This document shows positions 8,141-19,459 of a stretch of 19,681 nucleotides of DNA, one piece after another (positions within the stretch are counted from its first letter, which is position 1; each line of letters starts with the position of its first letter). The stretch covers positions 1 to 19,681 of IMG/VR virus record IMGVR_UViG_3300049919_000280. One strand, written 5' to 3'. The position numbers and the translations under genes were made by a program. The DNA comes from a virus (taxonomy: Duplodnaviria > Heunggongvirae > Uroviricota > Caudoviricetes). The notes under the pieces are model-generated. The model searched no databases, was not told the origin of the DNA, and was given only the letters and a program-made list of their open reading frames with translations.

Positions 8141-8347
8141 ATGCTTTCAACATTTTTTCATTCAGTCAAGATGCAATCCGGTAAATATCGCCAAAAAGTC
8201 AAGGCTGAAATGGATCAGCAACGAGGGGCATTCCGAAAGGAGTGTCCCACATTAACTGAGAAGCGTGCTGCTGCCATTGAGTATCTTGGTGAAAATTGGA
8301 TTCTCGCAAAGCAGTCACAGAAACTCCCCGTTATGCGTAGGGTTTAA
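8141..8347 (+). CDS. Hypothetical protein
   Basis: 68 aa with a GAGGAG RBS. Confidence 0.75.
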   Translation: MLSTFFHSVKMQSGKYRQKVKAEMDQQRGAFRKECPTLTEKRAAAIEYLGENWILAKQSQKLPVMRRV

Positions 8348-16981: not shown

Positions 16982-17008
16982 AGACTAAGTTTCAGGAATC
17001 CAATTCCG

Positions 17009-17044
17009 AGTCCCTTAGTCGAAAGATTAAGGGACTTTTTCTTT
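17009..17044 (+). terminator. Intrinsic terminator
   Basis: AGTCCCTTAGTC-GAAA-GATTAAGGGACT stem followed by TTTTCTTT. Confidence 0.85.
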
Positions 17045-17060: not shown

Positions 17061-17111
17061 AATCAACGAGTTACGAAATAGGTTGACATGGTTTGTGGAT
17101 GTAGGTAGAAT
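17061..17111 (+). promoter_or_regulatory. IHF-consensus site plus sigma70 promoter for the tRNA/ncRNA cluster
   Basis: AATCAACGAGTTA; TTGACA(17083)-17 nt-TAGAAT. Confidence 0.8.
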
Positions 17112-17132
17112 TCAGTTGTCGGTGCAGTAAAC

Positions 17133-17145
17133 GTTCTTTAAAATT
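17133..17145 (+). promoter_or_regulatory. rrn-type boxA antitermination motif, copy 1
   Basis: GTTCTTTAAAATT versus E. coli rrn boxA (T)GCTCTTTAACAATTT; lies just downstream of the predicted transcription start. Confidence 0.6.
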
Positions 17146-17150
17146 AATGT

Positions 17151-17239
17151 GGGTGATTGGTAGAGATGGATTATTGCACCAGTCTTGAAAACTGGCGTTC
17201 CGAAAGGGACCGTAGGTTCGAATCCTACATCACCCGCCA
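17151..17239 (+). tRNA. tRNA-Ser(TGA)
   Basis: GGGTGAT/ATCACCC acceptor stem, CCAGT-CTTGAAA-ACTGG anticodon arm, long variable arm, TTCGAAT T loop, G73 and encoded CCA. Confidence 0.95.
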
Positions 17240-17242
17240 CAT

Positions 17243-17317
17243 ACTGCTGTCGTCTAGTGGCTAGGACACTTGGTTTTCATCCAAGTAAAGTGGGATCGAA
17301 ACCCATCAGCAGTACCA
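17243..17317 (+). tRNA. tRNA-Glu(TTC)
   Basis: ACTGCTG/CAGCAGT acceptor stem, CTTGG-TTTTCAT-CCAAG arm, atypical ATCGAAA T loop and encoded CCA. Confidence 0.92.
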
Positions 17318-17333
17318 GTTCTTTTACAATTTA
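17318..17333 (+). promoter_or_regulatory. rrn-type boxA motif, copy 2
   Basis: GTTCTTTTACAATTTA. Confidence 0.6.
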
Positions 17334-17446
17334 AAATCTTTCGATGCATGGTGCTAGGGAGCTATCAGATATACCTTCAAGGTAGCCGCGAGGTTCTGGT
17401 GCGCAGGTCAAATGGGTTCGAATCCCACGAAAGATTTTAAATTGTA
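17325..17446 (+). ncRNA. tRNA-like structured RNA in a 19-bp terminal stem
   Basis: Perfect TACAATTTAAAATCTTTCG/CGAAAGATTTTAAATTGTA stem. A T arm (TGGG-TTCGAAT-CCCA) is stacked on it. The core has a TACC-TTCAA-GGTA hairpin and a GCC-GCGA-GGT hairpin. No CCA. Confidence 0.65.
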
Positions 17447-17454
17447 GTAGAATT

Positions 17455-17529
17455 GCCGGTTTAGCTCAGTGGTAGAGCAACCGCCTTGTAAGCGGTAGGT
17501 CGTCTGTTCAATCCAGACAACCGGCACCA
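17455..17529 (+). tRNA. tRNA-Thr(TGT)
   Basis: GCCGGTT/AACCGGC acceptor stem, GCTC D stem, ACCGC-CTTGTAA-GCGGT arm and encoded CCA. Confidence 0.95.
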
Positions 17530-17542
17530 AAATATGTAGTAG

Positions 17543-17593
17543 AATCAACGAGTTACGAAATAGTTTGACAAGAAATACCGAAGTCGATATACT
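17543..17593 (+). promoter_or_regulatory. IHF-consensus site plus sigma70 promoter
   Basis: AATCAACGAGTTA (identical to the 17061 copy); TTGACA(17565)-17 nt-TATACT. Confidence 0.8.
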
Positions 17594-17612
17594 GGCTTCA
17601 CTGAAACAAAAC

Positions 17613-17628
17613 GTTCTTTTACAATTTA
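17613..17628 (+). promoter_or_regulatory. rrn-type boxA motif, copy 3
   Basis: GTTCTTTTACAATTTA, about 15 nt after the predicted transcription start. Confidence 0.6.
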
Positions 17629-17787
17629 ATGATTCTCGGAAACATATTGTGGCGCTCGTTGCGAAACGTAGCTGTGATATGCGGATAAGACAGTAGCTGG
17701 GTTGGAATAGAGTCCTTTAGTGCCGTCAAGGTCGAAAGATACAGCGGAGAACACGTTCCCAGTGAAGCAGAGAATTATTAAATTGTA
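17620..17787 (+). ncRNA. Unidentified structured RNA in an 18-bp terminal stem
   Basis: 17620-17637 pairs with 17770-17787 (one G-U). Internal hairpins include CATATT/GATATG, CTGGG/CCCAG and GTC-GAAA-GAT. Confidence 0.6.
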
Positions 17788-17796
17788 GTAGAATCA

Positions 17797-17813
17797 TGTT
17801 CTTTAAAAATTTA
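17797..17813 (+). promoter_or_regulatory. rrn-type boxA motif, copy 4
   Basis: TGTTCTTTAAAAATTTA. Confidence 0.6.
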
Positions 17814-18225
17814 GATAAGTTGTGTGGAAGGTATGCTTAGAAGCAGCAATCCTTTAAAGAGTCGGGCAAAGGCAGTTCGCAGAAACACATAAGCGATAGT
17901 GATCGGTCTTAAAAATCTGATCGGCGTAAGGACATACGTTGGGATCACACCCACGAAATCGGCTGAAAAGTGAAATAGGTTACAGTCAAGACCATACACG
18001 GGGTCACAACGGGGGGCGAAAGCAGCCTCAAGGACAAGCTCGGAACTTGTTGAGACATAGTAACACGCCAAGGTAGCATCGCAAACTACTGAAGGCAATG
18101 GGGTTGCTCCCCTGATCACGAATGGCGGCTGAATCACTTGGTAAAGTACGGAGGCACCCCAGAAATGGTAAGGCTGAAGTCCTGTTTGGTCGTAATAGCA
18201 CACCACATAACTTATCTAAATTTTT
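17805..18225 (+). ncRNA. Large ncRNA containing a 23S rRNA H43-H44 (uL11-binding domain) mimic with a ~326-nt insert
   Basis: 23-bp terminal stem 17805-17827/18203-18225. Bases 17827-17862 match 23S 1055-1090, and 18191-18203 match 1092-1104, with compensatory pairs. Confidence 0.8.
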
Positions 18226-18228
18226 GTT

Positions 18229-18244
18229 CTTCTTTTACAATTTG
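18229..18244 (+). promoter_or_regulatory. rrn-type boxA motif, copy 5 (variant)
   Basis: (GTT)CTTCTTTTACAATTTG. Confidence 0.5.
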
Positions 18245-18249
18245 AACGC

Positions 18250-18343
18250 ATTACAAACTTGTCTGGTAAGTTAAACGTTAGACTACTATGCATGGGAATG
18301 GATAGGGTATTGGGCGACAATCCGATGCAGACAAGTTTGTAAT
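18250..18343 (+). ncRNA. Unidentified structured RNA in a 16-bp perfect terminal stem
   Basis: ATTACAAACTTGTCTG/CAGACAAGTTTGTAAT encloses a 62-nt core with two hairpins. Confidence 0.55.
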
Positions 18344-18363
18344 ACACTTTCTAACGAGAGTGT
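18343..18363 (+). repeat. Spacer hairpin repeat, copy 1
   Basis: TACACTTTC-TAAC-GAGAGTGT; 20/21 identical to 19316-19336. Confidence 0.7.
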
Positions 18364-18375
18364 AGATTAAAGTGA

Positions 18376-18451
18376 GGTTGTCCTGTCGTTTAACTCTAGG
18401 ACGCTTGGCTCATAGCCAAGAAATGCTGATTTTGATTCAGTCCAGACAACT
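18376..18451 (+). ncRNA. Degenerate tRNA-like element (CAT anticodon)
   Basis: GGTTGTC/GACAACT acceptor-like stem, CTTGG-CTCATAG-CCAAG arm and GCTGA-TTTTGAT-TCAGT T-like arm. There are 3 extra nt before the acceptor 3' strand and no terminal CCA. Confidence 0.55.
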
Positions 18452-18544: not shown

Positions 18545-19084
18545 GGGCGCATAGCTCAGTTGGTTAGAGCACTCGACTCATTAATAGTAATATTGTGCAC
18601 CACCGAAAAATGCACTGGTAGTCTTCAGGAGAAGGCTAAGCTCCCTTTCCCGTTGAGCAATCATCGGTAACAGCATCCCCTCCGACGCTGGCGTAACAGT
18701 GCAATCGAAAGACGGTAAAACAACGTAAAGGATGTTTAAGGGCAACCGTAAAGCATTGTGTATCGTTGGGTGAATTTCTTCAAAGTCGGCGAACGCTAAA
18801 TCACAAAATTTTGTGATATGCCAACGCCGAGCCAAGCTTAACAATCCTAAAATATAGTTGAAAATCTAGCCACGTCGTGGAAAAACAGGGATTGTTAAGA
18901 AGGTGTAGAGGCTTGACGGAGAATACCTAAAGCAAAGTAATAGCTAAGGTAAAGACAAAGTCCAGACCACGAACAACAGCATGGTGAAATCGAAAGAGAG
19001 TAGTCACAAAGTGCAGAGTTGGCGTTGAAAAACGAAGTGGTACGAATCGATTGGTCGTAGGTTCAAGTCCTACTGCGCCCACCA
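18545..19084 (+). tRNA. tRNA-Ile2(CAT), split by an intron (exons 18545-18581 and 19045-19084)
   Basis: The joined exons give a 77-nt cloverleaf: GGGCGCA/TGCGCCC acceptor, CTCGA-CTCATAA-TCGAT arm, TTCAAGT T loop, A73 and CCA. The body resembles bacterial Ile2 (GACTCATAATCG..TTGGTCG), though Met cannot be fully excluded. Confidence 0.85.
18582..19044 (+). mobile_element. Group I intron (463 nt, no ORF) after anticodon base 36
   Basis: The 5' exon ends in U and the intron ends in G. P1 is CAU/GUG with a U-G wobble (18579-81/18595-97). P3 is 18776-81/18918-23, P4 is 18786-91/18825-30, P7 is GGCTT/AAGTC (18910-14/18958-62), and P8 is TACCT/AGGTA. Confidence 0.9.
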
Positions 19085-19158: not shown

Positions 19159-19316
19159 GAAATAAGAGAGTTTGGTGGATGTTGCTAACAGACAATTCTG
19201 TTTAAAAGGTCAGGTGAGAAGCTTGGGTAATCTGTGGGACGCACCCCATGGGCCTTTTGTCTAGTAACGTGATTGATACTCACGGACGCGACTTTATCAA
19301 CACCAGACTCCCTTAT
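19159..19316 (+). ncRNA. Unidentified multibranched structured RNA
   Basis: Closing stem ATAAG-A-GAGTTTGGTG/CACCAGACTC-C-CTTAT. Nested stems are ATGTTGCTA/TAGTAACGT, AAAAGGTC/GGCCTTTT, GTGGG/CCCAT and TTGATA/TATCAA. Confidence 0.6.
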
Positions 19317-19336
19317 ACACTTTCTAGCGAGAGTGT
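19316..19336 (+). repeat. Spacer hairpin repeat, copy 2
   Basis: TACACTTTC-TAGC-GAGAGTGT. Confidence 0.7.
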
Positions 19337-19459
19337 GTTTAGATTAGTGCCGCACTTGCATGGTGGCAGACGCTTGGGAAGTAGTCTCCTTAATTGGATA
19401 AAGATGACACCCATGGACTCGAAAGGGCAGTTACACTCGAGAGCGGCACTAATCTAAAC
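19337..19459 (+). ncRNA. Unidentified structured RNA in a 17-bp perfect terminal stem
   Basis: GTTTAGATTAGTGCCGC/GCGGCACTAATCTAAAC encloses an 89-nt branched core. Confidence 0.6.

Follow-up and report, generated by a model that had tools for sequence, protein, structure and literature searches.

How might a phage express a long run of RNA that no ribosome covers? The question is raised by a stretch of 19,681 nucleotides (nt) from a virus of the class Caudoviricetes, called here the window, which forms the first 19.7 kilobases (kb) of the 98.8-kb IMG/VR record IMGVR_UViG_3300049919_000280; the record is estimated to hold about 45% of the genome. A check of the open reading frames (ORFs) found no credible ORF from 17.0 to about 20.5 kb. 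This ORF-free stretch contains transfer RNAs (tRNAs), one of them a tRNA(CAU) interrupted by a group I intron, together with structured RNAs that are unclassified, and the RNA cluster extends beyond the window end to about 26 kb. A first-pass annotation had proposed that boxA-type motifs and long stems give the array the expression architecture of a ribosomal RNA (rRNA) operon. In rRNA leaders and spacers, boxA recruits NusB/NusE and the rrn antitermination complex, and RNase III excises the rRNAs from long terminal stems. For the phage array, the balance of the sequence evidence tips towards genuine rrn-type boxA (and boxC) sites that would load host Nus factors, combined with leader-trailer helices.

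Five boxA-type motifs mark the RNA array

At no more than one mismatch, the motif GTTCTTTWAMAA was found at 17133, 17318, 17613, 17798 and 18229, so that all the boxA-type motifs reported in the first-pass annotation were recovered, the five of them on the plus strand and within a span of 1.1 kb (Table 1). Only 0.76 matches are expected in the window at this threshold, and the rest of the 98.8-kb record holds no further plus-strand site of this kind inside an RNA region. For the 7-mer GTTCTTT, a 1.2-kb span has four sites where 0.22 would be expected from its genome-wide rate (P ~9e-5). The local density is exceptional, because 858 kb of 49 other Ro60-encoding phage loci, scanned with a looser boxA pattern, hold just 10 sense and 7 antisense sites. 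Copy 1 is followed by TGTGGGTG, which overlaps the 5′ end of tRNA-Ser; this copy encloses nothing, tRNA-Ser being the next element.

The recurrence of GTAGTAGAA at 17444, 17536 and 17785 was also found as described earlier, and a fourth copy, TGTAGTAG, lies at 24491, beyond the window. The 98.8-kb record has four copies of AAWTWTGTAGTAG, all of them on the plus strand and confined to the RNA cluster (window 17436-17452, 17528-17544 and 17777-17793; record 24484-24498, beyond the window). Two of these copies are the 3′ arms of U1 and U2, two of the RNA modules considered below, and two are plain trailers after tRNA-Thr and tRNA-Asn that have no local partner. A nested pairing of boxA copy 1 with GTAGTAGAAT at 17536 was considered and dropped, as it was absent from both the minimum-energy and the centroid folds.

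The motifs are shared with bacterial rrn leaders

We scanned 185,579 species genomes for the GTTCTTTWAMAA motif followed, after 82-142 nt, by a conserved 16S 5′ end, which returned at least 120 stretches. At least 118 rrn leaders have the exact 12-mer GTTCTTTWAMAA, placed 80-140 nt ahead of the 16S 5′ end. Among the matches listed, nearly all belonged to Pseudomonadota, including Alteromonadaceae, Rhodocyclales, Burkholderiales, Neisseriaceae, Coxiellaceae and Woeseiaceae, and the boxA variants of the leaders listed were GTTCTTTAACAA (59), GTTCTTTAAAAA (50), GTTCTTTTACAA (5) and GTTCTTTTAAAA (4). Since GTTCTTTTACAA and GTTCTTTAAAAA occur in rrn leaders, phage copies 2, 3 and 4 have the sequences of genuine rrn-leader boxA elements. 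Copies 1 and 4 fit the gammaproteobacterial consensus GYTCTTTAANA (PMC5725501) perfectly, and copies 2 and 3 deviate from it at position 8, outside the core. The crystal structure of NusB-NusE reads an 8-nt boxA core (nGYUCUUU) base by base (PMC3177189); this core is intact in four of the five copies (1-4) and imperfect in copy 5.

In rrn leaders, boxA has a partner, boxC. Following the published definition (PMC10250234), we looked for a UCUGUGUGGG-like sequence 13-19 nt after boxA and within the 5′ strand of the leader-trailer helix. Copy 4 alone had a boxC-like partner, TGTGTGG, which begins 11 nt after boxA inside the 24-base-pair (bp) helix of module U3; copies 2, 3 and 5 had none. The sequence AGATAAGTTGTGTGG (17813-17827), which lies in the 5′ strand of this helix just as boxC lies in that of the 16S leader-trailer helix, is one or two mismatches away from the boxC region in 15 of the 118 leaders listed, which belong to Woeseiaceae, Steroidobacteraceae and uncultured Gammaproteobacteria; with leaders of sediment Gammaproteobacteria it agrees at 14 of 15 positions. 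Compared with the Enterobacteriaceae 10-mer, the boxC-like part of copy 4 agrees at 7 of 10 positions. Copy 4 thus joins a GTTC-type boxA to a AGATAAnTTGTGTGG boxC-like region, and by its sequence the segment 17798-17827 appears to be a compact mimic of a 16S rRNA leader. Inside the helix that follows, the U3 core (17829-17874) matches positions 1098-1144 of the bacterial 23S rRNA (large-subunit) model, which correspond to the uL11/GTPase-associated region; because U3 holds this mimic, an rRNA-like RNA lies inside a 16S-type leader-trailer frame.

The closest boxC-like leaders include those filed as L063, L085, L146 and L164; Woeseiaceae- and Steroidobacteraceae-like organisms are typical sediment bacteria. 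The phage DNA is present in freshwater and freshwater-sediment metagenomes, and a sediment-type leader match together with phage DNA in freshwater-sediment runs is a possible host hint, not a host assignment. Among the data sets listed as sharing a substantial part of the sequence, none is recorded as RNA, and a second search yielded just metatranscriptome contigs that share 4-6% of its words.

Long helices close the RNA modules

Inverted repeats of 28, 24, 23 and 16 nt follow the motifs, and folding gave terminal helices of 27, 24, 24 and ~17 bp around modules U1-U4, with the z-scores listed in Table 1. The first-pass annotation had the motifs sitting just before, or running into, long stems around non-tRNA RNAs. 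The four stems hold; the placement needs amending, as copies 2 and 3 are paired inside the stem and copy 1 precedes tRNA-Ser. In U1 and U2, the motif makes up the outer part of the 5′ arm and is base-paired over its full length: GTTCTTTTACAATTTAA pairs with TTAAATTGTAGTAGAAT through one U-U mismatch and two wobbles, the same in both modules, and GTAGTAGAA is therefore the complement of the TTTTAC variant of the motif. The U3 helix takes in just the A-rich 3′ half of copy 4. Modules abut, with the next motif starting 0-3 nt after each 3′ arm.

The flanking duplexes of U1, U2 and U3 reach the length of an RNase III stalk (about 20 bp or more of near-perfect duplex), and that of U4 has 16-17 bp. 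As modelled, helices of 24-27 bp appear adequate in length for RNase III substrates, and processing by this enzyme is plausible by analogy. The 98.8-kb record, which covers about 45% of the genome, was found to encode no RNase III or NusG domain. The core of U1 is tRNA-like, with a GGGTTCGAATCCC T-arm and a weak match to the tRNA-Sec model (19.9 bits), and its helix abuts tRNA-Glu at the CCA end on one side and tRNA-Thr at position +1 on the other.

Rfam returned no family for U1, U2 or U4, either at the gathering score or at E values up to 5, and nhmmer searches with U1, U2, U4 and U5 found no homologues among the collected phage loci. The idea that U1-U4 carry Ro60-binding stems was rejected, as the phage's own Y RNAs, which adjoin the Ro60 gene, have AAAGTGGTGT...TTGTTCCCTTTA arms in common that U1-U4 lack; nor was there a match to YrlA of Rfam in the RNA array. 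Contigs from four freshwater runs had near-identical sequence or were fragments, and no informative changes in boxA or the stems were found in them. An element of ~30 nt is repeated at 18341-18373 and 19314-19348 and includes an 8-bp hairpin, ACACTTTCTA(A/G)CGAGAGTGT; it sits 3′ of the U4 helix and 5′ of the next long helix (19337-19356 with 19440-19459).

Two of the three RNA promoters lead into boxA

The RNA array is served by three copies (P1, P2 and P3) of an early-promoter cassette composed of ATCAACGAGTTA, a -35 and a -10 element, each agreeing with the sigma-70-type consensus at 11 of 12 positions. This cassette is reused in the genome. Of its three RNA-driving copies, two are followed by boxA; of its ORF-driving copies, which number at least nine, none is, and these have a ACATCGAAAC...GGAG...ATG leader instead (2/3 vs 0/9, Fisher P ~0.045, computed by hand). 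No intrinsic terminator was found from P1 to ~19231; more than 2 kb would therefore be transcribed without translation. By analogy, such a transcript is the kind of setting in which rRNA operons and arrays of clustered regularly interspaced short palindromic repeats (CRISPR) use boxA.

boxA accompanies RNA genes in some phages

The 17-mer of copies 2 and 3 was present in 37 IMG/VR contigs. About 10 of them form a clade of phage tRNA clusters (L037, L031, L019 and others) unrelated to this phage, in which the motif has 2-7 copies, all on the strand of the tRNAs, placed in the gaps that separate tRNAs and immediately behind TTGACA...TAnATT promoters; the ORF promoters of those loci are without it. 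In the same clade, TTTAATATGTAGTAG precedes a tRNA-Met, and at L037 3390-3780 a tRNA gene with a group I-like intron adjoins the promoter-boxA leader, a parallel to window 18547-19083. An unrelated viral contig, L017 (IMGVR_UViG_3300030372_002644), has GTTCTTTTAMAATTTAA on its reverse strand at 8292, 9603 and 9934, 5-10 nt before the ribosome-binding sites of protein genes, an arrangement that recalls the boxA-mediated translational repression described for suhB.

A 26-nt signature of U3, GCTTAGAAGCAGCNATCNTTTAAAGA, was detected in 76 non-rRNA viral contigs (L174-L250), often directly after a tRNA or a promoter, and L241 contains a full-length U3 homologue. Four of the 76 have GYTCTTT within 120 nt upstream, and of these L192 alone is leader-boxA-like (GTTCTTTGACAA, 34 nt upstream). 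Four U3 homologues (L179, L198, L229 and L231) have terminal helices of 20-28 nt that are flush with the conserved core and unrelated in sequence; a long closing helix may thus be a recurrent and covarying feature of this family, independently of boxA. In many other U3 homologues a simple search gave just 11-15 pairs, the chance level for the search space. Scanning for the 3′ arm TTAAATTGTAGTAGAA yielded 17 chance matches, none with boxA nearby. As boxA and the exact 3′ arm were found together nowhere else, the constraint seems to act on the boxA strand, which the 3′ arm merely complements.

Features of the array and its surroundings

The features of the array are listed in Table 1. Beyond the modules, a tRNA-like element at 18379-18449 scored 28.9 bits against the Rfam tRNA threshold of 29 and was not called by ARAGORN, and about 95 nt of unassigned RNA separate it from the intron-containing tRNA(CAU) (window 18547-19083). 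The proteins encoded in the record are T4-like, among them a gp46/47-type exonuclease, PhoH, a Dda helicase and a Ro60-type RNA-binding protein. Cultured phages are very distant, the best match of Dda having 39% identity. Homologues of the 582-amino-acid protein encoded upstream, in viral and metagenome contigs, were followed by another gene order, with no RNA array.

Table 1. Positions in the window of the promoters, boxA copies, modules and tRNAs of the RNA array
Feature	Position	Strand	Description
Intrinsic terminator	17008-17037	+	closes the upstream protein genes; 5′ limit of the RNA array
Early-promoter cassette P1	17062-17111	+	ATCAACGAGTTA box, TTGACA at 17083, 17-nt spacer, TAGAAT ending at 17111
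boxA copy 1, GTTCTTTAAAAT	17133-17144	+	perfect GYTCTTTAANA; 21 nt after the P1 -10
tRNA-Ser(UGA)	17151-17239	+	tRNA gene call
tRNA-Glu(UUC)	17243-17317	+	CCA encoded
U1	17316-17454	+	27-bp terminal helix, 17316-17343 with 17428-17454, one 1x1 mismatch, z -5.4
boxA copy 2, GTTCTTTTACAA	17318-17329	+	wholly within the 5′ arm of the U1 stem
tRNA-Thr(UGU)	17455-17529	+	tRNA gene call
TGTAGTAGAAT trailer 3′ of tRNA-Thr	17535-17545	+	no local pairing partner in the P1-unit fold
Early-promoter cassette P2	17544-17593	+	ATCAACGAGTTA box, TTGACA at 17565, 17-nt spacer, TATACT ending at 17593
U2	17613-17794	+	24-bp terminal helix, 17613-17637 with 17770-17794, one mismatch, z -3.3; encloses a 132-nt RNA
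boxA copy 3, GTTCTTTTACAA	17613-17624	+	19 nt after the P2 -10, within the 5′ arm of the U2 stem
boxA copy 4, GTTCTTTAAAAA	17798-17809	+	with boxC-like AGATAAGTTGTGTGG, 17813-17827
U3	17804-18226	+	24-bp leader-trailer helix, 17804-17827 with 18203-18226, z -3.6; encloses a 375-nt RNA
boxA copy 5, TGTTCTTCTTTTACAA	18225-18240	+	degenerate; 10 nt 5′ of the U4 stem
U4	18250-18343	+	16-17-bp perfect helix, 18250-18265 with 18328-18343, z -3.9; encloses 62 nt
Early-promoter cassette P3	19096-19144	+	starts the next RNA unit; no boxA after it

Weighing the boxA reading

The proposal that the motifs act as boxA draws on their identity to rrn-leader sequences, the boxC-like partner of copy 4, the promoter-proximal copies and the restriction of boxA to RNA-driving cassettes; what does not stand is its extension to phage RNA clusters in general. 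Several observations count against it. P3, the third RNA-driving cassette, lacks boxA and is an internal counter-example, copy 5 (TGTTCTTCTTTTACAA) has a 3-nt insertion that leaves it imperfect in both registers, and neither the P1 nor the P2 leader has a boxB hairpin in the part from its predicted start to boxA (boxB is dispensable in Escherichia coli rrn; PMC10250234). NusB-NusE binds boxA as a single strand; as the final fold pairs copies 2 and 3 completely, they would have to be bound during transcription. The stem of U1 is flush with the tRNAs on both sides, and this module does not strictly require RNase III: RNase P and tRNA 3′-end processing alone could release it. The rrn comparison covers sampled bacterial leaders, from which the boxA of the phage's own host may differ. 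Finally, across phage RNA clusters, where the first-pass annotation had suggested looking for enrichment, the motif recurs in the L037 clade but is not general: the closest complete relative (G001, of 210 kb, with 73-76% identity in a neighbouring protein) carries 12 clustered tRNAs but not the motif, and neither 74 U3-family loci nor 49 Ro60-linked phage loci showed sense-strand enrichment of boxA, so these RNAs can be made without it. On this sampling, boxA on RNA modules appears to be a lineage-specific add-on and not a general property of phage RNA clusters.

Other explanations have to be set beside this one. The motif might be kept only because a terminal helix that can be used repeatedly, GTTCTTTTACAATTTAA with TTAAATTGTAGTAGAAT, needs it as one strand; this helix would protect or define RNA ends or serve a nuclease, the likeness to boxA would be incidental and no Nus factor would be involved. 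This would account for the full-length pairing of copies 2 and 3 with identical 3′ arms and for the fact that it is the rare TTTTACAA variant that complements TTGTAGTA; that AAWTWTGTAGTAG recurs in its own right in the RNA cluster, where two of its four copies are plain trailers of tRNAs, and that U3-family RNAs of other phages have long terminal stems of unrelated sequence and no boxA, agree with it as well. We nevertheless find a purely structural role doubtful. Copies 1 and 4 are canonical boxA sequences that are not paired through the GTTCTTT core, copy 1 has no RNA to enclose, copy 4 also has its boxC-like element, the motif is placed at a fixed distance from two promoters, and, of the two arms, only the 5′ one is found again in other phages and in rrn leaders. 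That one or more modules, above all U3 with its rRNA-like core, were copied with the leader from a host rrn operon and their flanks duplicated, leaving boxA and boxC as passengers without present function, seems improbable. The resemblance of copy 4 and its boxC-like part to real 16S leaders over ~30 nt would fit such an origin, as would the flanks of U1 and U2, whose identity over 17 nt per side suggests recent duplication, and the relatives that do without the motif. However, the U3 family (76 viral contigs) is old and mostly without boxA, so U3 was not recently captured with a leader, the motif follows the promoters of two cassettes at matching distances, as if under selection, and the phage version is compacted with respect to rrn leaders, not decayed.

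We give still less credence to a signal acting in DNA, be it a phage-specific promoter part, a regulator site or a recombination boundary for the shuffling of RNA cassettes. Weak promoter-like matches do overlap copies 1 and 3 (possible -10 hexamers TAAAAT and TACAAT), the motif of the L037 clade begins just 4-5 nt after a -10, and the modules abut like cassettes; yet there is no consistent -35/-10 geometry across copies, a transcription start within the motif would be senseless for copies 2, 4 and 5, and a role at the RNA level is more in keeping with the strict strand bias and with a sequence identical to an RNA signal. A late-promoter or MotA-box reading was rejected in particular, T4-type late promoters (TATAAATA) being found elsewhere in the genome and the -10 spacing being inconsistent. 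Least credible of all is a decoy in which abundant boxA RNAs soak up NusB and S10 and depress host rRNA synthesis, in parallel with mimics that may soak up uL11 and tRNA-binding factors. Five copies on transcripts from strong consensus promoters, next to modules that mimic translation components, could be seen in this light, but boxA buried in duplex in the mature folds (U1, U2 and partly U3) would make a poor decoy, and copies 1 and 5 are in spacers, which would probably be degraded.

A possible course of events

If the motifs are rrn-type boxA sites, as we lean to think, host-type sigma-70 early promoters P1 and P2 of this T4-like freshwater phage would start untranslated transcripts carrying the tRNAs and U1-U4, with a boxA (core nGUUCUUU) ~13-15 nt after each transcript start and a further boxA before each later module. 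Nascent boxA would bind host NusB-NusE(S10) and nucleate an rRNA-type antitermination complex (NusA, NusG and SuhB) on RNA polymerase, which would thereby resist Rho on RNA without ribosome protection. As has been suggested for the leader-trailer helix of 16S rRNA, bound boxA would keep the 5′ strand of the module's helix waiting at the RNA exit for its 3′ partner. The completed helix of 24-27 bp would then bury boxA (U1 and U2), or its 3′ half and the boxC-like element (U3), and be cut by RNase III or retained as an end-protecting stem. Each boxA would in this way be sequestered or removed by its helix, hence the fresh copy 0-3 nt on for the next module. For this phage we infer Nus binding, Rho resistance, chaperoning and RNase III cleavage.

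A more elaborate version, put forward as speculation that we rate as rather unlikely, makes each module a self-contained mini rrn unit. Its boxA would first load the host complex of Nus factors and the rrn transcription antitermination complex (rrnTAC), tethering the 5′ strand to the polymerase, and would then become one half of the helix, whose closure evicts the Nus factors and marks the RNA for excision, with reloading at the next boxA 0-3 nt on. Through such a relay the phage would enlist the chaperone role that the polymerase has in ribosome assembly, so that decoy translation parts (the uL11-site mimic and the tRNA mimics) are folded and released.

Should the motif work as boxA, non-lambdoid phages would be using the antitermination and chaperone machinery of host rRNA synthesis for their own non-coding RNAs, which are among the least understood phage genes. 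This would explain how multi-kilobase untranslated arrays escape Rho, offer the boxA variant as a new cue for predicting the hosts of uncultivated phages, and make boxA plus a closing helix a compact natural cassette to express and excise structured RNAs. The layout of one boxA per module also provides a simple test system for boxA tethering in long-range helices, which is hard to study on a 1.5-kb rRNA.

Comparison with known systems

Our literature search found no paper on boxA in phage tRNA or non-coding RNA clusters. Particular to this phage are the presence of one boxA per module, the building of boxA into the closing helix and the boxA-boxC leader mimic around an rRNA-mimic RNA.

The nearest counterpart is the bacterial rrn antitermination site (boxB-boxA-boxC, bound by an rrnTAC with NusA/B/E/G, SuhB and S4), whose boxA sequence is, in many Pseudomonadota leaders, the same as that of the phage. 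Both systems combine a promoter-proximal boxA with internal 'spacer' copies and co-transcribed tRNAs, and in both, boxA immediately precedes a long helix in which the two flanks of a structured RNA pair with each other; one phage copy has in addition a boxC-like element in the 5′ strand of that helix. In contrast to rrn operons, the array is phage-borne and encloses RNAs of 60-375 nt that are not rRNAs; it has five copies in 1.1 kb, one per module, it pairs boxA itself into the helix in two modules, it lacks boxB, and its boxA-boxC spacing is 11 nt, compared with a mode of 15 in rrn leaders.

boxA upstream of CRISPR arrays guards a long untranslated RNA precursor from premature Rho termination, according to the account of Stringer 2020 cited in PMC7862264. 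There, too, boxA serves a long untranslated multi-unit RNA. CRISPR arrays differ in having a single leader copy, in being borne on a chromosome or plasmid and in having no leader-trailer helices.

Lambda-type nut sites (boxA-boxB with the N protein) likewise put a phage boxA on early transcripts, and the engagement of NusB/NusE would be a further likeness here. The array differs from them in having no boxB hairpin and no recognised N-like gene, in a strong rrn-type boxA as opposed to the weaker CGCTCTTA of lambda, and in its cargo, which is non-coding RNA and not delayed-early genes.

The tRNA cluster of phage T4 includes the small stable RNAs species 1 and 2 (rnaC and rnaD), of which species 1 is reported in literature of the 1970s to be cut by RNase III in vitro. 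Stable RNAs interleaved with tRNAs on common precursors are thus common to both clusters, and in T4 a double-strand-specific nuclease is implicated. We know of no boxA described for the T4 tRNA cluster, and the stems of the array described here are, in contrast to those of T4, much longer and standardised.

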